DNA of 64,000 nucleotides from Dendrobates tinctorius (taxonomy: Eukaryota). The notes under the pieces were generated by a model, which worked only from the letters and a program-made list of their open reading frames with translations, was not told where the DNA came from and ran no database searches. Positions 8,173 through 61,245 of the stretch are shown in pieces. Within the stretch, counting starts at the first letter, position 1, and each line of letters starts with the position of its first letter. Made by a program: the position numbers and the translations under genes. The DNA is taken from the NCBI RefSeq assembly GCF_039654945.1, contig NW_027361737.1:5642001-5706000 (forward strand). The letters run 5' to 3'.

Positions 8173-8346
8173 ATGTGTTCAGGAGGCTGTGCAAAGTGCT
8201 TGGGCATCACCCTCATCCCTCTCGCTATTCTTTCTGTTTTGGCAAATATTTTGCTTTTTTTCCCAGCTGGTAAAGTTGCAGAGAGCAATGATCATATCAC
8301 AAAAGAAGTCTTTTACCTTGGAGGACTCTTGGGTTCTGGTGTTCTG
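8173..8346 (+). CDS. TM4SF4: TM4SF4 copy A, coding exon 1 (174 nt)
   Basis: MCSGGCAKCLG...LANILLFFP...GGLLGSGVL, L6-family N-terminus; GTGAGT donor at 8347. Confidence 0.95.
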
Positions 8347-8964
8347 GTGAGTGCACAACCTTAGTGTGTGTTAATTCTCACATTTTTCTGGGCCTTTGTT
8401 CATTATCATCTGCTTAATATTAATTCTCCTGAGAATATCCTAAAAAATGGTAATATACATATACAGATTAGCGTACATAACATCCTCCAAACATTAGTAA
8501 CCATTGTTTTCTCGTTTTAGTTTTTTCTTTTTGCTGGAAATTTGGATAAAAATTACCTTCAGCCAACATTATTGGGGCTAAAATGAACAATTGAAATTGG
8601 ATATTAAAGATTAGAATATTAAAGAGCCAGACGGCTCGCAGTACTAACTACTCCTTAGATGAATTACCCATAAAAGTTACAATCCTCATAATCAGCCTCG
8701 GCTCCTTCCGTTAAAAAATAGATACATTTTATTAATATGGATGTTGGCCAAAGTTCCCAATGAATTTTTCAGATGTTTGGAAACTGTCCTTAAATAGGTA
8801 CATTTTTTTAGTCATTGATTTTATAGAGATTAGTATATAACATACTGGTATATATATATTTTAAGCCTTAACCTCTACATGCCATGGCCAATTTTCATTC
8901 TTGCACTTTCATTTCTCCTGTCCTTTCTTCCAAGAGTCATAACTTTTTTCCATCACCACATGAA

Positions 8965-18993: not shown

Positions 18994-19213
18994 TAGATGG
19001 CAAGTTTTTTAAGGAAATGACCCAACATGGAAGCAGAAAAAAATTCTGCCAAATGATGATAGATCTGCTACATACCCTGCACTGATTCTCCCTCTCTACA
19101 TTTCATTTTTTTTTTGATTCAAGACCACATAAAGTTCTGTACATCATGGCTAGTCAGGGGCAAACATGCAATGTTAATTTTAGCTTGCAAGTAATTGTTG
19201 CTTTTTATTCCAG

Positions 19214-19350
19214 ATGTTTTCTTCGATCATATTTGCTGCCATTGGATTTGCTGGAGCTGCGTATAACTTCATTATTTCTGCAGTTGCTATAAATAAGGGG
19301 CCAATATGTTACACAGAAAACAATACTTGGGAATATCCTTTCAGTGATGG
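19214..19350 (+). CDS. TM4SF4: TM4SF4 copy A, exon 3 (137 nt)
   Basis: CAG|MFSSIIFAAIGFAGAAYNFIISAVAINKGPICYTENNTWEYPFSDG|GTATGT. Confidence 0.95.
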
Positions 19351-20245
19351 GTATGTGTAAATTATTGTAAAAAAAAAATAATCTAAGGCTATCGTGTCAT
19401 TTAGGCAGTTATGTTTTTCCATTTACTAACCCACAATGCATTCTCAACACCTAAGCTTTTTTCTGAATACCAGTTTTTTCTCTGTGTCTTTCTGTAATTC
19501 AGTGTGATACTTAACAAGTCAGTTTAGATACATCACATGGCATACAGGAATAGCAATATTGCGAAACGTCAGCCCAAATTGCTAATTGTTAGGCCCTGTT
19601 CACACAAGTTTTTGAATTAGCATATGTGAAAATAGGCAATTTTTTATATATCTTATTAGATTTTCTCTCCTATTGAATCAATCTTTCACTCTCATAATTG
19701 TAAGCAAAATCCAATGATCATAGTGGGTATATAATAATAATAAATAGAAAATACTAGAACTTCACACCCACAATAAGTGCAGACAGGGAAGGCCAACTGT
19801 AATATTGAGATAATAAACAAAGAACAAACACAGTCATAAGGTCACAATAAAACTAAAGAATTTATTGATACATAAAATACATACAGACAGACATATGCAA
19901 GTGGGGGCTAGAAGATGAAAGGGTTATTCAAACCGCATGTGTGAGGCCCAGGGTAGGTTGGTAGGAAGGCAGAAAAATAATAGTATCATGGCATAAGAAT
20001 CATATATGCACAGTGGCAAAGTGAAAATAAATTACAGGTACAAGGCATCATCAAACAGTGCAAGTAACCGGCACAGAAGCCATATGTGCATAATAGCACA
20101 GAAGAGCCTGACAAGAATGAGAATCAACAATGCCTAAATATGGCCATAGAGTCAGGTGCATAAAGAACAAGTAGATGTGCTTAAAAAAACACAAGAGTTC
20201 AAGTACCTGTAAATAGAGTAGCCGCCTTCCTCCACATCCCACCCG

Positions 20246-21019: not shown

Positions 21020-22240
21020 CACTCACTGGCCACTTTATTAGGTACACCATGCTAGTAAGGGGTTGGAACCCCTTTTGCCTTCAGAACTGCCTCAATTCTT
21101 CGTGGCAGAGATTCAACAAGGTGCTGGAAGCATTCCTCAGAGATTTTGGACCATATTGACATGATGGCATCACACAGTTGGCGCAGATTTGTCGGCTGCA
21201 CATCCCTGATGCGAATCTCCCGTTCCACCACATCCCAAAGATGCTCTATTGGATTGAGATCTGGTGACTGAGGAGGCCATTTGAGTACAGTAAACTCATT
21301 GTCATGTTCAAGAAACCAATCTGAGATGATTCGAGCTTTATGACATGGCGCATTATCCTGCTGAAAGTAGCCATCAGATGTTGGGTACATTGTGGTCATA
21401 AAGGGATGGACATGGTCAGCAACAATACTCAGGTAGGCTGTGGCGTTGCAACGATGCTCAATTGGTACCAAGGGGCCCAAAGAGTGCCCAGAAAAAATTC
21501 CCCACACCATGACACCACCACCACCAGCCTGAACCGTTGATACAAGGCAGGATGGATCCATGCTTTCATGTTGTTTACGCCAAATTCTGACCCTACCATC
21601 CCAATGTCGCAGCAGAAATCGAGACTCATCAGACCAGGCAACGTTTTTCCAATCTTCTACTGTCCAATTTCGATGAGCTTGTGCAAATTTTAGCCTCAGT
21701 TTCCTGTTCTTAGCTGAGAGGAGTGGTACCCAGTGTGGTCTTCTGCTGCTGTAGCCCATCTGCCTCAAAGTTCGACGCACTGTGCGTTCAGAGATGCTCT
21801 TCTGCCTACCTTGGTTGTAACGGGTGGCAATTTGAGTCACTGTTGCCTTTCTATCAGCTCGAACCAGTCTGCCCATTCTCCTCTGACCTCTGGCATCAAC
21901 ATGGCATTTCCGGCCACAGAACTGCCGCTCACTGGATTTTTTTTCTTTTTCAGACCATTCTCTGTAAACCCTAGAGATGGTTGTGCGTGAAAATCCCAGT
22001 AGATCAGCAGTTTCTGAAATTCTCAGACCAGCCCTTCTGGCACCAACAATCATGCCACGTTCAAAGGCACTCAAATCACCTTTCTTCCCCATACTGATGC
22101 TCGGTTTGAACTGCAGGAGATTGTCTTGACCATGTCTACATGCCTAAATGCACTGAGTTGCCGCCATGTGATTGGCTGATTAGAAATTAAGTCTTAACAC
22201 ACAGTTGGACAGGTGTACCTAATAAAGTGGCCAGTGAGTG
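21020..22240 (-). mobile_element. Full-length Tc1-family transposon of the DD36E (Incomer) type, nested in the Penelope 3' region
   Basis: Perfect 29-bp TIRs CACTCACTGGCCACTTTATTAGGTACACC; TA TSD; 1221 bp. Confidence 0.93.
21052..22092 (-). CDS. Intact DD36E Tc1 transposase, 346 aa
   Basis: N-terminal HTH; [16 protein letters not shown] and [11 protein letters not shown] motifs; 36 residues between the second D and E. Confidence 0.93.
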
Positions 22241-22473: not shown

Positions 22474-25400
22474 CTAAAGAAATGGCGAGAAGCTGAGGTT
22501 CTCATTAAGTCCTAGTGGTTGGACAGTATCAAGAGTCCAAATCCATCTACTCTCTAGCTGACCAAGACGTTTGGACAGATTTCCACCTCTAATATTGATG
22601 TCCAAGACATCAATTCCCCGTACACGTAAAAGATCACTGTTACATTGATGGAACAGCTTGAAGTGTTTGGGAATAGTTTTGAGGGTGGTTGTTTCATCGT
22701 GACCGTTGGTGGCCTGGATACCCAAAACGTGTTCTCTAATTCGGACTTTAAGTTGTCTAGTTGTCATCCCCACATAGATTAAACCACATGGGCAAATGGC
22801 AAAATAGACAACGTATCTAGTGGTACACGTAATCCGTTTTTTAATTCTGAAATTTTTAGTACCACCAGAATTGAAAAAATCATCACATCTATCCACGTTA
22901 GGGCAAGCCACACAGCGGCCACAAGGAAAGCAACCACCCCCAAAAGAAGCGGTATCCAGAAACGTTTGTGGCTGTGACCCCACGTGGTGACTCCTAGTCA
23001 GGAGATCACGTAGGTTCTTAGCACGTCTAAAAGTGATCATTGGACGTTGAGGCAGAAATTTCTTAATTATAGGATCTACTTGTAGAATAGGCCATGCCCT
23101 TGTTAATGCGGCCCGAACACGATCTGAGCATGGATGATACCTAGTGATGAATCTACATTGATTCTCACCCTCAGGTGACCTAACCTGTTTTTGATATAGA
23201 AGATGGTTACGATTAGAGTACTTGGCCCTATGATAGGCCTTCTTAATAATCCTCCTACTATACCCACGCTCCAGGAAGCGTAGCCTTAATTCCTCCGCCC
23301 GCCTTTCAAAATCTACGTCCGACGAACACAACCGTCTCAAGCGAAGAAACTGACCTATCGGTATGGATGCTATCATATGGTGTGGGTGGCAGGATGAGGC
23401 GTGTAATAGTGTGTTAGTAGAAGTTGGCTTACGGAAAATGTCCGTATTAACATTGCCACTCGTGTCTTTAAAGATGGAGACATCCAAAAAGTTAATTTTA
23501 GTACTATCCCATTCACAGGTCAAGGAGATATTCAATTCACTACTATTGAGGCACTCAATAAATTGCACAAGGTCGATGGACGTGCCTTGCCAGACGAACA
23601 GGATGTCGTCGATATACCGCGTCCAAAAGGGGACACGGTCTATCGACACCATCCGGTCCGACTGGAAGAGGTCCCTCTCCCACAGCCCCAGGAACAGGTT
23701 AGCATAGGCCGGCGCAAAGGCCGCGCCCATGGCTGTCCCCTGGAGCTGCAGGAAAAAGGACCCCTTAAACACAAAGAAATTGTGCGTGAGGGTGAATTCA
23801 AGCAGTTCCAGCAAGAGTCCCTTCAGACCACTCGACAAATTAGAGGTTTGAAGAAAAAACCGCACCGCGGCAATGCCATCTTTATGTCTGATATTCGTAT
23901 ATAGGGATTCTACATCCGCTGAAACTAGCAAGGATTCACCCTCAAGGCATAGGCCATCGACCTTGCGCAAAAGTTCCCCTGTATCCTTCAAATAGGAAGG
24001 GAGAGTAATAACAAGGGGCTGGAGGTGGAAATCGATCCAACGATTGACGTGCTCCAAGAAGTTACCCCTCCCTGACACAATAGGCCGACCAGGTGGCGAT
24101 CTCAGATCCTTATGGACCTTCGGCAATAAATAGAATGTGGCCACTGTGGGCTCACTAATCAGTAGTGCCGAAGCCAGCTCCTTGGTGATAATGCCATCCC
24201 GTGTTGCCCTATTAATGATACTCTCCAATTGATTAGAATATGCGCAAAGGGGATTATACGTCAGTTTTTTATAGCAAATGCTATTGTTCAACTGGCGATA
24301 AGCTTCCTTCTCATATAACTTAGTTGGCCACAGGACGACATTACCATCTTTATCGGCCGGCTTCAGCACCACATCCGGAAGATTCTGAAAATATCTAAGT
24401 CTAGCACGTTCCTCCCTGGTCAAATTATCATCCCTAATAAATTTAGGGATCTGAGAGAGTTCACGAGTCACCACCTGAACGAAAAGGTCAACACTAGTGC
24501 AAGTAGCCAGGGGGGGAAACTTCTTGGATCGTGGACGGATAGATGGGGGATCTTACCTCCCTCATGTTCCACCGCCAGCTCCTCCAAGGCTCTCAGGGCC
24601 TTTTGTTCCTCCTCTGTGGGGAAAAGAACATTGTTAACATCATTAAAGAAATGCCTCTTTAGCAGTAGTGACCTGGCAAACACGTTTAAATCCTTAATAG
24701 TGGCAAAAGTATTGAATTCCGGAGTAGGTGAGAATGAGAAACCCCTACCCAAAAGAGACAGGTCGGAGGGGGATAATATATAATGACTAAGGTTAATTAC
24801 CCTATTATCCCTTTTATCAAAGCCAGTTTGATGACCGTGTTGCCTTCTATAGGGGTGGTATGAATGGTCCCTCAGGCGTGCTGTACTAGAAGAAGTAGAC
24901 AGATCCGACTGTCCACTTGTAGATGTAAGTGAAGTATTAGATGGTATACGAGGTAGATTTGGGTAGGCTTTCTTCCATAAATAGACTTTATTGCTCTGAT
25001 AGTCCTTTACATCCCTGTTATATTTAGAGAATTGAGTCTCCTGGATTTTCTTAGCGAGACCATCAAGGGATTTCTCCAACTCATTATTAAATTGTTGCAA
25101 CTTCTCCTTAGGACAATCATTATCCAGACCTATTTGTGTGTCATCAATAAGTTTATCCAGTTCACTAATATTCGTGCTATTCAAATTAATCAAAAGCTGC
25201 ATAAGAATAAAGGAGCAGCCATTACAGGCTTCCTCCCATTTCTTAACAAATACATCATCTTCTACGGGGAAGGTAGGAGTTACACGAATCCTTAGCCCTC
25301 TAGAAATCATTTTATTCGAAAGATATTTCTCTAAAAACATTTTATTCCACCAAAGCCTAGAACGTCTGATTACTGAATTCTTAATAGTCATCAGCCTTTC

Positions 25401-25502: not shown

Positions 25503-26240
25503 TTCATTGGATGGAACACCTGTGCATAACACAGCAAGATATACATATAAGCAAAATCCAATGATCATAGTGGGTATATAATAATAATAAATAGAAAATA
25601 CTAGAACTTCACACCCACAATAAGTGCAGACAGGGAAGACCAACTGTAATATTGAGATAATAAACAAAGAACAAACACAGTCATAAGGTCACAATAAAAC
25701 TAAAGAATTTATTGATACATAAAATACATACAGACAGACAAATGCAAGTGGGGGCTAGAAGATGAAAGGGTTATTCAAACCGCATGTGTGAGGCCCAGGG
25801 TAGATTGGTAGGAAGGCAGAAAAATAATAGTATCATATAATAGTATCATGGCATAAGAATCATATATGCACAGTGGCAAAGTGAAAATAAATCACAGGTA
25901 CAAGGCATCATCAAACAGTGCAAGTAACCAGCACAGAAGCCATATGTGCATAATAGCACAGAAGAGCCTGACAAGAATGAGAATCAACAAGGCCTAAATA
26001 TGGCCATAGAGTCAGGTGCATAAAGAACAAGTAGATGTGCTTAAAAAAACACAAGAGTTCAAGTACCTGTAAATAGAGTAGCCGCCTTCCTCCACGTCCC
26101 ACCTGCCCCGACGCACGTTTCGACTTTACTTTTAAGTTACTTTTTATGGCGATGATGATTGCATTGCTATATGTGAATGTTACATGCAATTTTTATCTAA
26201 ACACTTATTGATAACAATTATATATCATTTATTTTTTTAG

Positions 26241-26457
26241 GGATTATTTAAAAAATCATACCTTATGGGAGAACTGTAAAATATACCAACCCGATAAGAG
26301 TAAGCTTAACACGGAAATCATCATCACCTGGAATTTGACCCTCTTCTGCATCCTCCTAATATTGGGTCTGGCGCAAGGTGTTCTCTGTGCAATCCAAGCT
26401 GTCAATGGTCTAATTGGGACAATCTGCGGGGACTGCAAGTGCTGCGGATGCTGTGGA
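26241..26457 (+). CDS. TM4SF4: TM4SF4 copy A, exon 4 (217 nt)
   Basis: TAG|G DYLKNHTLWENC...WNLTLFCILL...LCAIQAVNGLIGTICGDCKCCGCCG|GTAAGT; phase matches exon 3. Confidence 0.95.
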
Positions 26458-47204: not shown

Positions 47205-47378
47205 ATGTGCTCTGGGGGTTGTGCAAAGTGTCTGGGCATTGCTCTGATTCCATTAGCTATCCTGTGTATTCTTGCAAACATCCTGCTGTTTTTTCCTGGA
47301 GGGAAGGTTGCAGAGAGCAATGGGCACATCTCAGATGAAGTCTGGTACTTTGGTGGAATATTGGGATCTGGGGTTCTG
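47205..47378 (+). CDS. TM4SF4: TM4SF4 copy B, coding exon 1 (174 nt)
   Basis: MCSGGCAKCLG...FFPGGKV...EVWYFGGILGSGVL|GTGAGT. Confidence 0.95.
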
Positions 47379-49071
47379 GTGAGTAATAGCTCTTTTGATA
47401 TTTAGAAATAAGTCCCATATTTATTTGTCTATGCTACCTTAAAGGGATTGTCTATGATACGTTAAAGATATTATCACCTATTCCCTAGCCAGCTGAATTC
47501 GTAGGGTCCAACTGCTGGGAACTCAACCGATTAGCTGAACAAGGCACTATTTTCCCCTTTCAAATGGAGCAGCAGCATGCATACTCGACAGCTGCTCCAA
47601 TCATTCTCATAGAAAATGAATGGAGTGACCATCGAGCATGCGCACTGCCAATCCATTCTAAACCGGTTCGTACAGGTCCCACCAGTCCGATCCACACAAT
47701 CGTCAAGTTATCACCGATATTATCAAACTTCTTTTCACCTGACAACTTTATTATGACCACAAATTATGTATACACATGTTTTGCTTCTGATCTAGTAGTC
47801 AGGTGCAAAATAGAAGTGACCAGCAACAATAATTTTTGTAATTAAAAAATAACATTTATTAGATAAAGAATAATAGATTAAAATTTCAGAAAAAGGTGTT
47901 GAAATAGGAGATACAGGAATAAATAATCAATATGTAGCAGTCTGGTATATAATGTTCATAAATTTATATTCCCCAAATCTTTTTATCAATCTTATAATTA
48001 AAAAAATAGCGGATTTTTAAAACAGCCCAAATTATGGTATAGAACATTCCAAAGCTAGGAATTGATTTCAATTATTTTTAAGTAAAGCACTTTCACACTT
48101 AAATATGTAAATATATGCACATTAATCTCTCACTAGAAGGTCGGTGATTTTTTTTTTGTATTATATATTGTGAGGTAGCGCTGTCATTCAGGGTTGGGGG
48201 GACACTCGCTTGGCAGCGAATAAGTCACATCCAGCACGGGTTTTCATAAAGCAGTATAATCCATGCGGTTTATTTCAGCTTCATAAACCATCACAGCAAC
48301 AGAAAACAGCATACAGTCAGCATTGCCTCCATTACAGAGTCCAGCTCTGTTATCCTTGCATCACACAAGATGTGCACTGTTCAATGCGCAGGCTTTTTAG
48401 CCACCAAGTTATCTTACCCACGTCAGGGTTGCCTCGTGCTGTTTCACCATGCTGCACGTTTATTCCCTCCAGGGAACTAACAGGCACATATCGCCATTAC
48501 ACACAGCGTCCACATGTGCCGTCAGGCAGGAAGCCCTATGTCAGCGGGACCTTCCTCTCTGGACCAATCGGGTCCCTGCATTCACCCACATGTGACCAGA
48601 CCTCAGGTACCTTATATGGTCCATAACCACACCCACAGGTGATCACATGGCTATGACCTCACCCAAGGTCCTATTGCAGACAATCACACACACAGGCTTC
48701 CCTGACACATTGTAACAGAACGTACTAGTCAGCAGTACCTCTGCTGATCATTATGATCTTTCAGTATCCTACCCCTATCAGGGCAGTGGAAATGTTTATA
48801 CGGCTGTCCTGGGACACCCACACAGCACCCCCTAGTGGACACAGCGGTCACTGCACCACATACCTCCCCCCTATGTTCAAACCTGTGGGGTTGAACACAC
48901 AGCATAACCCCCGGCTCTTGAGACTGGGCACTCACTACACCTTGCCCACCAGGTCGAGAGAACGTCTCCATTTGTCATACGGCCTCATCTCTACGTTAGG
49001 CCTCCCCCGCTCCCAGCGGTCATAATACCGGTCATTGTCTTTGACCCCCCAGTCACGGTTTGTCTGCGTCA

Positions 49072-50664
49072 TCAGACACTCTCTAGTCTCCACCTGTCTG
49101 CAGTATGCTTCGTCACCTGATCTCTCACTGACCGTCTCTTTCGGTTGGTGCGGTCATAAGTCTTAGTAGAGTCTGCTGTCTGGTCTGAGTCTGACTCAGT
49201 CAGCGTCTCACAGGAAATATGGTCTTTCAACGTCATCCTGCCAGTCGAACTACCCCTTGCTGACACTCTTCTGCCATCTGCCCTGTCACTTCTTGGAGGA
49301 ACCGTTCGGGTCCTTACATCTTGGGTTGGAGGCGGCTGCCACCTGGTATTCTTTATTTCTTTATTAATTCGCCGACGGTCCAGCCTCAACTGCTCAATTT
49401 CTTGCAGGTACTCCACTTGATACTCCACGAGCATCCGAAATTCTCTCAGGCTTTCCACGGAGCCAACCACCATGATGGAAATCCTATCCACTTCCCTGGA
49501 TACCTGGTCATCATCAGGAGGGATCCTCACCCTCACCACACCGGAGATATTCACAAGGTCTTGCATTACCTTCCCGGACCTTCCAATGATTCTCCCAATC
49601 AGAGTTTTGGGTACCAGAACCACATCTTTCCTCAAACCCAACCGATCCATAGCCTCTCTTGCTATCTCTAGGCGTCGAGCAGCCTTCATATTACTCTGCC
49701 TAACCAATTGTTTGACACGTAGACACTGCAAATGCATCTCTTTCAGGACAGCTACTCGGTTTGATGTATCTTCCCTGGCTGATACTATCACCAGCTGCCG
49801 AGTCTCAGGTGCCCAGTGCACCTCACATGCTTTGACCGCCTCTTTGAAAGCCTCATGTACCCCTTCCTCCGCACAGGCTTCTTGCATGTTTTCGGGTACC
49901 TCGATCACAGATTTGAAGGTCGTGGTCTTGCTCTCTTCCTGGACAGAAGACTCTGGCTTTACCACGGACACTTCCCTCACTACAGTTGACCCGACCAGGT
50001 GACTGTCTTCTTCGGCTCTTTGCTCACCAACTTCAGGAGATTTTATCTCTTCACGAGCCTTTGCCAAGATAGGTACCGGCAGTTCCTTCTTGTTATCACT
50101 CGGACCCAGCTGCTGCACATCTCCGTCCAAGCTCTTCTCCCGCAGAAGACCTTCTACTACTCCTCTGAGTTCCTCAATCTCTTCCTTAAGGCTCTTGTTC
50201 ACACTTTGCCAGGTGGACAGGTGACCTCTGAGCTCCAAGACTTCTTTCTCGAGCCCCTCCACCTTGTGCTCGGCCAATTGTCTCAAGATTCTCTCTTGTT
50301 TGACATGTTCTTCCACTGTCTCTTTTATTAGTTGTATCTCCTGATCTTGTTCTCTTTTGGCCAGCACGTGTCGCACCACTAATTCTTTAACTATATCGTC
50401 AAAGGGCACCACTGAGTCAGTCCTATCAGTCGAGTGAACCCCCCGGTTACCCTCTGACTGTGTTTCTATTCCTGTTATCCTCTCGATCAGGTTACCACCA
50501 GTCCTGTCATGAGTTTCAGTCAGCACAGCATTAGATTCTGTCCTAGTGGTGGCCACTGGCAATAACACGTCACAGTCACACCACACCGTACGGTGAACCC
50601 CCAAGACACTCTCTATCCGTGTGTCAGCTCCGCTCTTTTTGTTTACCACACCATTCTCATTCAC
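49072..50664 (-). CDS. Chimeric coiled-coil + FXR1-derived KH0/KH2 RNA-binding protein (retroelement-borne, intronless)
   Basis: VPENMQEAC...HEAFKEAVKAC...PETRQLVIVSA...EMHL, VPKTLIGRIIGRSGKVMQDLVNISGVVRVRI, YLQEIEQLRLDR and SDQTAD...TNRKRRS align with FXR1; ORF opens at GTG and has no ATG until residue 260. Confidence 0.85.
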   Translation of the reverse strand: MNENGVVNKKSGADTRIESVLGVHRTVWCDCDVLLPVATTRTESNAVLTETHDRTGGNLIERITGIETQSEGNRGVHSTDRTDSVVPFDDIVKELVVRHVLAKREQDQEIQLIKETVEEHVKQERILRQLAEHKVEGLEKEVLELRGHLSTWQSVNKSLKEEIEELRGVVEGLLREKSLDGDVQQLGPSDNKKELPVPILAKAREEIKSPEVGEQRAEEDSHLVGSTVVREVSVVKPESSVQEESKTTTFKSVIEVPENMQEACAEEGVHEAFKEAVKACEVHWAPETRQLVIVSAREDTSNRVAVLKEMHLQCLRVKQLVRQSNMKAARRLEIAREAMDRLGLRKDVVLVPKTLIGRIIGRSGKVMQDLVNISGVVRVRIPPDDDQVSREVDRISIMVVGSVESLREFRMLVEYQVEYLQEIEQLRLDRRRINKEIKNTRWQPPPTQDVRTRTVPPRSDRADGRRVSARGSSTGRMTLKDHISCETLTESDSDQTADSTKTYDRTNRKRRSVRDQVTKHTADRWRLESV

Positions 50665-51361
50665 ACTGTGGAACTGACATCAGGTCAGTAAATTCGTCTG
50701 ACGCAATTCTTTCTCCGGTCGCCCTTATGTCTGGCCTGTCCACGTTAGGAGGCGTCAGCGTCTCAGTGTCTGCTAGCCCTACAGTAGAAACATCTCTATC
50801 CTCCTGCCCCACATCTTTAAACATGACAAAGTCCCGGCGCCTCTCAAAGGTATGCACTAAGTTTGGTGGCCTACTACCACCTTGGCACTCCCCCTTTGTC
50901 ATCTCAATTAGGACTCTGTCCACCTTATAATTCACAATGACCCCGTGGAGGCAGCGAACTCTGACGTTTTTCTCGGTCAGAGCTAAAATGAGCAGAGTTC
51001 CTTTGAGAGTCACCTGACTCTTTGAGTCCAGCCTACCAGGGACTCCTTCCCGATGCAGCATCACGTTACACACCTGCAGCCCATCGTCACTATCCGGAAA
51101 GGATATCCCACATTCTGACCAAGTCATACACACACACTGCGGTACTCCAGATGTACCCACTGAGTCATCTAGCGCTGTCATTTCTTCAAACTTGGCCCTT
51201 TTCTGGACCACCACCCCACTTTGGGTTGCCGCCCCCTCCTGGGACTCCACCCCTTTATGGGTTACCGCGCCAATTTGGGACTTCACCCCCTTTTGTGCTA
51301 CTACCCCGATTTGGGTCACCGCCCCCTTTTGGGACTCCACTCCCTTTCGGGATCTCCCCAT
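50657..51361 (-). CDS. Upstream ORF: 6-aa repeats plus degenerate Gypsy retropepsin
   Basis: ATG at 51361 in a strong context (GACATGG); LDSKSQVTL, VRVRCLHG and RRDF resemble LDSGSxVTL, VxCIHG and LGRDF. Confidence 0.6.
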   Translation of the reverse strand: MGRSRKGVESQKGAVTQIGVVAQKGVKSQIGAVTHKGVESQEGAATQSGVVVQKRAKFEEMTALDDSVGTSGVPQCVCMTWSECGISFPDSDDGLQVCNVMLHREGVPGRLDSKSQVTLKGTLLILALTEKNVRVRCLHGVIVNYKVDRVLIEMTKGECQGGSRPPNLVHTFERRRDFVMFKDVGQEDRDVSTVGLADTETLTPPNVDRPDIRATGERIASDEFTDLMSVPQCE

Positions 51362-54344
51362 GTCTGTTATACCGGTCTTCTCAGACCACAGTTCACACCA
51401 CAGTTTGTGTCTCTTACGATACCACACAAGTCTTTGTTGGCACCACCACAGCTCCTGCTGTCACCGATCACCGGCTGCTGTTCACACACAGCTGCTGGTG
51501 TCACTGCAGCTCCTGCTGCGCCGTCTTCGTGGACCCGCTGATCCACCGGAAGCCGCTTGTCCCCTTCGTAACCCCGCCGGGTTACCGGAAGCCGCTTGTC
51601 ACCCTCGAAGATAAAAGAAACCACAAAAGCGCGCCCATAGGGCCTTACCAGTGCAGGTATAATGGGTATAAAGAAATAATACAGGGTACTCACCCTTAAT
51701 AGTTGTGTAAAGCCACAACTACTGTATCCGCTTAGTCACATGCAATAACGCTGCAGCAGGATGGTACCAATGCTGAAAGAGGAGATCCCAAAAAAAGAAA
51801 AACACCAGGTCCCTGTGCTGCGAGATCTTCGTGACCCCACTGAGCCACAGCAAGCACCTTCAGGTTTTGCAGAGGAAAAAAGGAAAAACACATGCAGGAA
51901 AAAACTCCAAAAAACTCACGTATCCTGTCTGTGCACTATTCAGGACGTACCGTCTCCGCCTGAGACCGTCCAACACACAGGGCACACCGGGTGCTATTCA
52001 GGGAGCCGACCCTCCTCCCAGGGTCTCCCAACACACCGGCCTCACCAGGTCCAAGGTCATATCACGTGTTCCAGGGATCCAATTCCTCTCTCAGAACCTC
52101 CCAACACTGACCCTCCAGGACCTTGCTCACTGATCCAGGTCAGTACAACAACGAACACCTGTCGTTACCTGTGTCGGCCACACAGGTCCTCGGGTACCTC
52201 TTATCCGCAGAGGCACCCTAGCAATCACCCGTCTCTTCCACTGAGCTGCTGTCAGTGTACGGCTTTCACAATAGTCAGCCCTCCTGGCTCAGCGTTGCCA
52301 GCACTGCAACATGTGCTGTTGGAACTGCAGCCCTTAGCAACAAAGTATTTTTTTTTTTTTGGCAGTCCTTTTCCGTTGCCCCCAGCAACAAGGCTCCTAT
52401 ATTGCCCTTAGCAATTCTCCACCATTTGTGAGGTAGCGCTGTCATTCAGGGTTGGGGGGACACTCGCTTGGCAGCGAATAAGTCACATCCAGCACGGGTT
52501 TTCATAAAGCAGTATAATCCATGCGGTTTATTTCAGCTTCATAAACCATCACAGCAACAGAAAACAGCATACAGTCAGCATTGCGTCCATTACAGAGTTC
52601 AGCTCTGTTATCCTTGCATCACACAAGATGTGCACTGTTCAATGCGCAGGCTTTCTAGCCACCAAGTTATCTTACCCACGTCAGGGTTGCCTCGTGCTGT
52701 TTCACCATGCTGCACGTTTATTCCCTCCAGGGAACTAACAGGCACATATCGCCATTACACACAGCGTCCACATGTGCTGTCAGGCAGGAAGCCCTATGTC
52801 AGCGGGACCTTCCTCTCTGGACCAATCGGGTCCCTGCATTCAACCACATGTGACCAGACCTCAGGTACCTTATATGGTCCATAACCACACCCACAGGTGA
52901 TCACATGGCTATGACCTCACCCAAGGTCCTATTGCAGACAATCACACACACAGGCTTCCCTGACACATTGTAACAGGACGTACTAGTCAGCAGTACCTCT
53001 GCTGATCATTATGATCTTTCAGTATCCTACCCCTATCAGGGCAGTGGAAATGTTTATACGGCTGTCCTGGGACACCCACACAGCACCCCCTAGCGGACAC
53101 AGCGGTCACTGCACCACAATATGTATTGAAATGTCAGATGATATGTCACCAGGGATCTAATAGGAATAAAATGTACAATATGAAGCTATTTATTTTTACC
53201 TTCAATCAAGGCTCACATAGAGTAATTTGACGCAGATTGTCTCCAAAATGCACATTAAAAAAGCTTGCTATTCCCTGCATGCTCTTCCTTTTCATTTCAT
53301 TGAAAGATTAACGAGTTTTTTTTTTTTTTTTTTAAACCTTGCAATGGTAAAAAGCAGTGATACATCCCTTCATCGAATCTGCTCCAAATTTGACAGTCAA
53401 TTCAAAAGGCAGCAAAAAAACTATAGAAAAAATTGCTTCAAAACCTCCTAAAATGGCTTTAAAATATTATTTAGGAATAGCAATTGGTTCCACTAAAGCA
53501 GCATTCCCTGAAGTGGATTACTCTTGAAAAACTTGGCTTATTGTCACCTCCAAAAACAGATGACTATATCCCTACAGACTAGGTCAGGGCTTGTGTTTTT
53601 ATCTCTATTCTAAAGAGATGAGCAAAAGTTTCCTATACACTTTAAATAAATTTGTCCAAACTTGCCAAATCCTACCGGAGCTGCAAAAGTGGCCAGGCCC
53701 TGCACCTAACATAAACTAATGAAGTCAGATGGTATATGCGCTTACATAATATTGGGAATAGGGATTTTTATCCTGATGAGGCCTTTTATCCCATTTACAA
53801 AATAGAGCCAAAGATCAGATTCCTGACAGCTATATTGTTTGTTCTGTATGAGGCTGCTGAGAAAGGCGAGTGCAGCGCTGTGCAGCCTGAAAGGGAAGGA
53901 ATGGAGCAGCAGTCGCACATGCGCACTGCCACTCCACTCTTACAGGGATAAAATTTCCCCATTCTACTGATCGGTACTTATCCCAGCAGTTGGACACCCA
54001 TCAATCAACTTGGGAATAAGTGACAACTTGTTTTCACAGGTCAACCTCAAAGAATTAACTAGACTGCCTCCACTCAGGAACCTGTTTTCTATGCACTGAC
54101 AAGTCATCGTAGAGGTGATCCCTACCTAGAAGGATTCACCTTTGATTGAGAAAAATTTAATATACTTCCCATACAGTGCCGGATGCAGGAGAAATGAAAA
54201 GATGCATCGAGGTTACTGATTGGTTGTTATAGCTAAGGGTGGAGAAGCTTGACCAGCAGCAATCAGTTGATTACTTTTGGCTTGTTTGGGTTTATACATA
54301 GCAATTATTACTACATTCCAAACAGGAATACAGTCATATGTACA

Positions 54345-55130
54345 GTTACATTTTGGAAGAAGGTCCTGTGGACTGATGAAACAAAGATTGAGTTGTTTGG
54401 TCATACAAAAAGGCGTTCTGCATGGAGGCTAAAAAACACAGCATTCCAAGAAAAACACTTGCTACCCACAGTAAAATTTGGTGGAGGTTCCATCATGCTT
54501 TGGGGCTGTGTGGCCAATGCCAGCACCGGGAATCTTGTTAAAGTAGAGGGTCACATGGATTCAACTCCGTATCAGCAGATTCTTGACAATAATGTGCAAG
54601 AATCAGTGAAGAAGTTGAAGTTACGCAGGGGATGGATATTTCAGCAAGACAATGATCCAAAACACCGCTCCAAATCTACTCAGTCATTCATGCAGAGGAA
54701 CAATTACAATGTTCTGGAATGGCCATCCCAGTCCCCAGACCTGAATATCATTGAACATCTGTGGGATGATTTGAAGCGGGTTGTCCATGCTCGGCGACCA
54801 TCAAACTTAACTGAACTGGACTTGTTTTGTAAACAGGAATGGTCACAAATACCTTCATCCAGGATCCAGGAACTCATTAATAGCTACAGGAAGCGACTAG
54901 AGGCTGTTATTTTTGTTGAGGTGCCCATACTTTTGCACCGGTCAAATTTTGTTTAAATGCAGATTGCACATTTTCTGTTAGTACAATAAACCTCATTTGA
55001 ATCCAGAAATATAACTGAGTCCTTCAGTTATTAGATATATGAAACTGAAATAGCTGTTGCAAAAACCAAAATTGTTATAAAGAAAAAAGGTTAACATTAA
55101 TAGGGGTGCCCAAACTTTAACATATCACTG
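54345..55130 (+). mobile_element. 5'-truncated Tc1 (DD34E) element
   Basis: [31 protein letters not shown]; right terminus ...ATATCACTG+TA. Confidence 0.88.
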
Positions 55131-59952: not shown

Positions 59953-61108
59953 TTACAGTGTAGAATTCAGGGAAGAAATATAATAAAAAAGTGTTATTTT
60001 TTAATGGGAATCCATACCAGGTTTTTTTTTGTACCCCATCTGAGAGCAGCATGATGTAGGGGCAGAAGCACTGATTCCAGTGATTTGGCACTTACTGAGC
60101 TGCTTGTTATTATTTTGGTAAGTCATTGTTTTATCTGCTGTAAATCTAGCAGTTCTCTGAATGCTGTGCTCTGTATAACACTGCCCACAGAAGTGATTGG
60201 CAGCTTTCTGGCCAGAGTACATAGAAAGCTGCCAATCAGTGGAGGGGGTGGGGTTATACAGCACTCATGAATATGCCTGACTACTTGGCATTAGACCTCT
60301 GCTGATAAAACAGTGATTTTATCAAAATTACAATAAGTAGCCTAGTAAGTGACATATCTCTGGAATCAGAGTCTCTACATTATGCTGTTTTCACATGGCT
60401 AAAACCTGGTCACTGATTCCCTTAAAGAATATTATTAAACTATCAAACAAGTTGGAATTGCCTTTCTTTTCTCCATCCAAATATAAAGAAATAAAAAAAT
60501 AAATAAAAATAAACATTCTGTATCTCTACATCTGTAAAAGAGCAATCTCTCAATACATGCATCTATTTAACCAATTTAACCAGTAGAGGTGGTATGATCA
60601 GACCATGTCCCTGCATGGTCAGACTCAGCCATTACACAGTACACAGCAGGGGCACATGTATAAGATTATCTCAGCACAGGAACATTTTATTTCATCACAT
60701 CCTAATCTGGAACTTATTATTAGACCAATATCTAGTGAATAGAATGAACTTTTGTTTGTGGGAAACCCCCTTAATATACTTATATGCATACTATGGAGAG
60801 CTTCGATTATCAGCTATGGGAAAGAATAAAGAATTACAGAGGGTCACCCTTGTAGAAGACAACCCAATAAACATTATCATCATGTGTGAAACCTCTGAGA
60901 CACCCCGCTAACATTGCTGTGTTATAGGGTTGTTTTTCTGAAAGAGGATCAGTATGGAGAAGATATATGAGAATTGTAGAAAAGTTTCACATTTACGCAT
61001 GATCCTTATATGCATTGTAAGTTAGTAACAAAAGTTTCTGCATCCAGAGCTCATTGTAATGCGGACGTGATGCTCACTTTGTTGTCTCTCTGTTTATTGC
61101 TTTTGAAG

Positions 61109-61245
61109 ATGTTGTCCTCTATACTGTTTGCCGCCATTGGATTTGTTGGCGCTGGCTACAGCTTTATCATCTCCATAGTCGGAATACATAACGGTCCAAA
61201 GTGTGATGTAGGCTTTGGAAACTGGACATATGCTTTTGAAGGGGG
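61109..61245 (+). CDS. TM4SF4: TM4SF4 copy B, exon 3 (137 nt); exons 4-5 lie outside the window
   Basis: AAG|MLSSILFAAIGFVGAGYSFIISIVGIHNGPKCDVGFGNWTYAFEGG|GTAAGT. Confidence 0.93.

Follow-up and report, generated by a model that had tools for sequence, protein, structure and literature searches.

What is a shortened piece of the host gene FXR1 doing inside a mobile element in a frog intron, and has it been kept for something that its protein does? The question is raised by a stretch of 64,000 nucleotides from Dendrobates tinctorius (the window, to which all coordinates refer), in which positions 49345-49929 of the minus strand form one open frame. A first-pass annotation made from the sequence alone had read this frame as captured FXR1 with an altered set of domains, resembling a streamlined or dominant-negative partner of the host FXR proteins. 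We compared it with related copies and with host references recovered from this frog, which cover exons 5-14 of FXR1 and portions of both FMR1 and FXR2.

The element and its setting

The frame belongs to an LTR element that lies antisense to an L6/TM4SF-family gene, between its first exon and the next exon matched, at 61085-61243 (Table 1). The related copies fall into subfamilies that succeed one another in the order K (KH1 kept, five copies found), O2, O1, M and Y, the young subfamily that includes the window copy. A pair of LTRs with TG...CA ends, a target-site duplication, a primer-binding site, presumably of the tRNA-Ala type, and a polypurine tract are all present; the LTR-adjoining primer-binding site recurs at 6/6 young, 1/4 M and 2/4 O2 loci. 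No Pfam family for reverse transcriptase or integrase was matched in five frames of the window or in an uninterrupted sibling ORF, and Pfam recognised no Gag capsid in the element. It is a non-autonomous, helper-dependent LTR retrotransposon. Searches for an autonomous helper based on the protease returned only family members among the scored matches, with none in the protein database, and at each of the 20 protease-like loci inspected the match was to the ORF of the family itself and not to a helper.

Judged from siblings, the family has a single ORF of about 880 codons that joins the repeats, the decayed retropepsin, the coiled coil and the FXR part. The active-site motif of the protease is altered in the window copy and is D-S-G in older relatives. 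Pfam gave no match to the protease remnant, and the protease domain of a relative matched retropepsin clusters at 0.95 in the ESM Atlas. For the origin of the upstream coil, Pfam returned generic coils and the ESM Atlas matches were all below 0.85. Further subfamilies (L124-L143, P0009-P0011) have the D-S-G protease motif with a cysteine-rich stretch before it, and by eye P0009 has two protease-like remnants.

In the window copy the family ORF is broken by frameshifts at codons 248, 767 and 822, the first of them upstream of the FXR part, and this copy cannot make the family protein. The ORF is uninterrupted in five of the 29 young copies (L014, the tandem twin of L013, being excluded). Any function therefore belongs to the family and not to the window copy, whose LTR pair gives an age of about 2 My when a rate of 2.5e-9 per site per year is applied. 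L013 and L014 are two young copies in tandem, about 4.3 kb apart.

Table 1. Features of the element and the adjoining host exon, in window coordinates
Feature	Position	Strand	Remarks
LTR element, 4,950 bp	48169-53118	minus	in a host intron
5' LTR, 692 nt	52427-53118	minus	TG...CA; 685/692 identity with 3' LTR
3' LTR, 692 nt	48169-48860	minus	
Target-site duplication, 4 bp	48165-48168; second copy 53119-53122		flanking sequence
Primer-binding site	52411-52424	minus	2 nt inward of 5' LTR
Polypurine tract	48861-48872	minus	precedes 3' LTR
Tandem repeats, 18-nt unit, at start of family ORF	51209-51357	minus	ATG at 51361
Decayed retroviral-type aspartic protease	50801-51082	minus	aligned to relative P0010
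Coiled-coil region ahead of FXR1 part	50134-50400	minus	in-frame fusion; net dN/dS 0.39
FXR1 KH0 and coiled coil 1	49675-49929	minus	Pfam KH_9, E 9e-15; host N202 kept
KH1 deletion junction	49648-49674	minus	break between 49657 and 49656; 180 nt, in frame
FXR1 KH2	49444-49623	minus	Pfam KH, E 5e-7; GxxG loop 49573-49584; M in place of host I304
Coiled coil 2 / NES-bearing helix	49354-49431	minus	NES anchor L369 is R
FXR1 disordered-tail remnant (exons 12-14)	49150-49353	minus	RG stretch and RGG box deleted; DNA alignment to host
Host L6/TM4SF-family gene, first exon	47205-47390	plus	PF05805 search

What is kept of FXR1

The annotation had proposed that KH0 and the GxxG loop of KH2 are kept, and both were recovered, the loop reading GRSG. 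It had also put the loss of KH1 at about 60 residues. Measured against this frog's own FXR1, the interval from the end of exon 7 to a KH2 anchor has shrunk from the host's 216 nt to 36 nt, so that exactly 60 residues (180 nt) are missing. The RGG box is likewise absent, the FXR part containing no RGG and one RG against two RGG and nine RG in the host. The homology extends beyond 49345 to about 49150, with an exon 14 motif at 49171-49197.

Two of the proposals need amending. Neither Agenet, Tudor_FRX1 nor the FXR C-terminal family is matched by Pfam in the window frame, whereas a fish FXR1 scores all of them; however, every lineage seen starts inside exon 5, so the Agenet repeats were most likely never captured rather than lost. 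The NES-like helix is present but its NES consensus is damaged in this subfamily: the anchor at host L369 (NES position after PMC5358978) is R in 27/29 copies of Y and hydrophobic in 15/15 copies of M and 6/6 of O1. Among the features of the FXR/FMR1 family the element thus has KH0, and has no tandem Agenet/Tudor, KH1-KH2 tandem or RGG box.

Capture and loss of KH1

The element is contiguous over the host exon junctions 5-14, with the introns removed. The captured part begins inside exon 5, past the second Agenet repeat, and can be traced into exon 14. In a DNA tree with 21 copies the elements form one clade (support 98) that is sister to the frog FXR1 (support 100), in keeping with the first reading of the frame as captured FXR1, and the KH1-bearing copies branch first; a tree with named frog proteins has the same topology, with a support of 100. 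FMR1 and FXR2 are ruled out as the source by the tree. The family derives from one capture of spliced FXR1 mRNA without the Agenet repeats. The FXR2 gene is present in this frog (L033), with exons 7-9 intact and GT-AG borders. To our knowledge, Xenopus has no FXR2 gene.

Set against the exon boundaries, the deletion opens about 9 nt inside exon 8 and closes 18 nt inside exon 9. Skipping of exon 8 was considered as its cause and rejected, since the exon measures 171 nt and the deletion 180 nt; moreover, the two codons with which host exon 8 begins survive in one old copy, which places the break inside the exon and excludes skipping. A template switch at microhomology, suspected at first, is not supported, as none of 1,260 in-frame 9-mers reached 8/9 identity and a near-repeat lies at offset 181, in a check that used the host sequence and not the element of the time of the deletion.

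In 62 loci, picked by similarity rather than at random, the junction interval is 36 nt in 49 and 19-35 nt in eight, while five keep KH1 (185-216 nt); O2 has lost a further 9 nt at the junction. That the deletion might be private to the window copy is contradicted by 40/40 scored siblings, which match over the whole stretch, and by the 23-base junction pattern of the young subfamily, which has 345 exact matches in the genome against none for a reversed control. KH1 is still present in five older copies and in two proteins of Anomaloglossus, so its loss followed a single capture. Of the other losses, the RGG region was first taken up and later cut, an early cut of at least 24 nt at the RGG box being common to all 12 aligned copies; the exon-12 RG stretch is still found in K and is gone from the KH1-less lineages, and Y has lost more of the tail. 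The GxxG loop of KH1 is dead in K and in Anomaloglossus, and the node that bears on whether the loop died before KH1 was deleted has a support of 41. Taken together, these comparisons support losses that were staged and heritable.

Copies, ages and distribution

The DNA searches returned 2,921 and 4,428 candidates, 40 of each being scored, so all totals are lower bounds. Ages estimated from LTR pairs, which are rough, are 0.6-3.9 My for Y (six copies, with LTR pairs 0.3-2% apart), 7.5 and 14 My for M, 23 My for O1 and 26 and 30 My for O2, at the rate used in bioRxiv 10.1101/2023.11.06.565769. Young copies are dispersed despite the lack of reverse transcriptase and integrase, and amplification has continued. 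In one case (L039) a KH1-less copy is inserted within an old KH1-bearing copy.

Proteins without KH1 are named from D. tinctorius, Ranitomeya imitator and R. variabilis. KH1 is present in two proteins from Anomaloglossus, which fall in the captured clade, and this makes the capture older than the deletion; on this sequence evidence the capture is likely to be common to both frog families. These two (P0018 and P0020, from Anomaloglossus baeobatrachus) are annotated as FXR1-like, with a dead KH1 loop and an intact KH2 loop, and by eye have a short N-terminal flank like that of K.

Selection on the captured part

Pairwise dN and dS were calculated on real copies, and the diversity within subfamilies was subtracted to give net values. 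The core test used 12 of 29 Y, 12 of 15 M, six O1, five O2 and five K copies, with L070 and three fragments excluded; the values below come from a simple counting method on small samples, with dS near saturation in deep pairs. In comparisons between subfamilies the 195 codons of the core give a net dN/dS of 0.18-0.29 (upper bootstrap bounds 0.29-0.42), against 0.49-0.67 within subfamilies. Differences at the three codon positions are flat within subfamilies (0.076/0.066/0.081) and heaviest at the third position between them (0.212/0.156/0.376). Neutral decay of the FXR1 piece since its origin is contradicted by these ratios.

The constraint is not spread evenly. Between Y and M (10 and 15 copies), net dN/dS is 0.19 for KH0, 0.29 for KH2 and 0.09 for coil 2 (codons 660-695), and the upstream coil has a confidence interval of 0.16-0.93 around its value in Table 1. 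The linker gives 0.44, the disordered tail 0.73 (CI 0.45-1.19) and the far tail 2.11. Purifying selection is confined to KH0, KH2 and the coils, and is absent from the disordered tail. For KH1, K against the host gives 0.43, a point value without an interval.

Individual residues follow the same pattern. Both glycines of the KH2 loop are found in 28/29, 12/15, 5/6 and 3/5 copies of the four KH1-less subfamilies, 48/55 in all, against 0/5 in K. The host N202 is kept in 55/60 copies, and the positions of V361, L351 and I304 are mostly hydrophobic in the KH1-less subfamilies. K has lost both GxxG loops and has T at I304 in 5/5 copies, yet its net dN/dS is still 0.19-0.25, so RNA binding appears to have been dispensable in K. 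Five in-frame indels are common to M and Y. The young copies are about 60% identical to host fxr1 DNA, with a net dS above 1, and their protein is about 35% identical to host FXR1 over 62 shared codons.

Predicted structure

AlphaFold2, run with an alignment of eight rows, predicts that the module folds (pLDDT 88.7, pTM 0.61), though the domain orientation in the model is uncertain and the confidence is partly borrowed, because the alignment included a real FXR1 and because FMRP structures are known to the method. The KH0 of the model matches FMRP KH0 structures at 1.1-1.4 A over 75 residues. The deletion is predicted to join the last helix of KH0 to the stub of the last helix of KH1, giving a single helix of 42 residues, which in the model would lead into KH2 and coil 2.

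A sister family with a myosin tail

In a sister family (L112-L123, L144-L155) a stretch of non-muscle myosin II tail, about 230 codons long, takes the place of the entire FXR1 part. The two families share the LTRs (at about 73% identity), the repeats, the remnant of the protease, the coil and the tail. This family has at least 136 copies without the FXR1 part, and its spread indicates that the FXR1 module is not essential for mobilisation. The myosin cargo has no demonstrated constraint; its net dN/dS is 0.60 (CI 0.35-1.13) with flat codon positions, and it serves as a near-neutral control of low power.

Discussion

The idea of a streamlined partner of host FXR proteins has stood in part. The parts that are retained are exactly those under purifying selection, including the two coils that human FXR1 needs to dimerise; on the other hand the NES consensus is damaged in the young subfamily, the window copy is broken and a sister family has spread without FXR1. 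The explanation we favour, as plausible though short of probable, is that the element's protein acts in cis as an FXR1 mimic, binding its own RNA and joining host FXR assemblies through its coils. Intact copies would be translated in the germ line, KH2 and the basic tail would hold the element's own transcript, and the two coils would pair with FXR1 or FMR1 or with themselves. The transcript might then be shielded from FXR-linked repression, or be brought to granules where it could be packaged into the particles of a helper Gypsy element. Loss of KH1, the RG stretch and the RGG box would put an end to broad binding of host mRNAs and so lower the cost. To judge from the domains, the element seems to have retained the surfaces for assembly together with a single RNA cleft, and to have shed the parts that bind host mRNAs broadly.

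What is reported of the host proteins is in keeping with some of these steps. In human FXR1 both coils are needed for dimers and networks, the Tudor pair is not strictly needed, and a point mutation in either KH1 or KH2 abolishes the network (PMC10635158). The KH2 cleft has been modelled to bind UBAP2L and a viral peptide, but the binding of UBAP2L to human FXR1 was mapped with both KH domains present, so KH2 alone may not suffice (available sections of PMC10897489). [quoted passage not shown] A role of vertebrate FXR proteins in transposon control would follow by analogy with fly FMRP and is not established.

The same constrained coils would also suit a dominant-negative acting in trans, which pairs with FXR1 or FMR1 but has no KH1, RG, RGG or Tudor, breaks FXR networks and so relieves repression for all elements in the cell. 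The human KH1 mutation G266E alone breaks the network (PMC10635158), the KH1 loop was already dead in both KH1-bearing lineages, K stayed constrained after losing both loops, and the myosin-swapped family behaves as a free rider. However, if the benefit were purely shared, broken copies would be expected to take over the master lineages, whereas constraint lasted through four successive subfamilies, roughly 25-30 My, and the KH2 loop was kept in all the successful ones. Constraint along successive master lineages implies that intact copies out-replicated broken ones, which favours the mimic acting in cis; we consider the dominant-negative unlikely, if a serious contender. Contact with the host could also be dispensed with altogether, the module being an oligomerising, RNA-binding scaffold that replaces Gag function and has no meaningful dealings with host FXR proteins. 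The lack of a recognisable Gag capsid, the extra coil fused upstream, the replacement of the cargo by another self-assembling coiled coil and the low identity of the young subfamily to host FXR1 would all fit. Against this, the myosin cargo is without demonstrated constraint, so that not any coil does the same job, and the FXR1 positions relevant to interfaces are conserved; such a scaffold seems to us rather unlikely.

It would be simpler if the piece were a processed fragment that hitch-hikes, with only an open frame being kept to stabilise the RNA. The five in-frame indels of M and Y fit selection for an open frame, and few young copies are uninterrupted. But the constraint differs by domain, with 0.09-0.29 over the folded core and 0.73 over the tail, and the predicted fold is preserved, neither of which an open frame alone predicts; passive cargo is very unlikely and is largely refuted. 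Anti-silencing at the level of RNA, in the manner of Drosophila TART, would mean that host fxr1 is knocked down by antisense piRNAs which the captured piece supplies. Capture of host genes by transposons has a precedent (PMC13534243), and the many copies could feed piRNAs. The DNA identity to fxr1 is however low and the synonymous sites have diverged freely, which places selection on the protein and not on a nucleotide match, and makes this reading extremely improbable.

Compared with FXR1 itself, the element has in common KH0, KH2 with its GxxG loop, both coiled coils and a remnant of the tail. It differs in lacking the Agenet repeats, KH1, the RG stretch and the RGG box, in the loss of the NES anchor in the young subfamily, and in that the FXR part is joined to a dead protease and to a coil foreign to FXR1, and is encoded by a mobile element. 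Defective transducing retroviruses such as v-erbA are helper-dependent LTR genomes in which a spliced host mRNA was fused in frame to what remained of viral genes and later trimmed, and v-erbA is a dominant-negative of its host protein. Unlike these, the frog element has no envelope or infection; it has been inherited through the germ line for tens of My in many copies and was not selected in tumours. We take it to resemble the Gmr1-like Ty3/Gypsy LTR retrotransposons, with which it shares TG...CA LTRs, a 4-bp duplication, the style of primer site and polypurine tract and a retropepsin remnant, but beyond that remnant it has no pol and so lacks their reverse transcriptase and their integrase, which in that clade is located upstream of the reverse transcriptase. 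LTR-mediated retrocopies and Pack-type captures likewise carry an intron-less host fragment, between LTRs as here. Their cargo usually decays, whereas that of the element is constrained and is now the main coding content of the family. Drosophila telomeric elements with fragments of nxf2, piwi or aub (PMC13534243) are alike in retaining a captured host gene linked to transposon control; those captures act via piRNAs and a nucleotide match, while the present one is in frame, selected as protein and found in a vertebrate LTR element.

No report of FXR1 capture by an LTR retrotransposon in frogs was found in the literature searched; repeat libraries lay outside that scope, and the family may be catalogued there unnamed. 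The main text of two poison-frog genome papers makes no mention of FXR1 or fragile X. It is possible, although doubtful, that an FXR1 mimic selected for at least 30 My, a host RNA-granule protein domesticated in the reverse sense by LTR elements of poison frogs, co-opts or disables the germ-line FXR1/FMRP network, that this is the first protein-level counter-defence of its kind in a vertebrate retrotransposon, and that it contributes to the LTR expansion of the giant genomes of these frogs. Non-autonomous elements are expected to lose coding capacity, and here selection on a host-derived protein has lasted over five subfamilies at the least. Dated intermediates in the trimming of FXR1 are present in the genome, and the subfamily series amounts to a deletion scan made by nature, which singles out KH0, KH2 and both coils. 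This makes testable in a vertebrate whether FXR1 and FMRP restrain germ-line retrotransposons, and which of their surfaces matter. The family further accounts for the spurious gene models labelled 'FXR1-like', 'FMR1 homolog' or 'myosin-9-like' in annotations of dendrobatids.

Neighbouring sequences

A second L6/TM4SF-family gene lies upstream in tandem on the plus strand (8173-8355, 19160-19360 and 26185-26439). The window also contains a full-length Tc1-type transposase ORF of 346 codons (21052-22092, minus strand), a weak GIY-YIG match (22474-23730, minus strand) and a second DDE fragment (54495-54956, plus strand).
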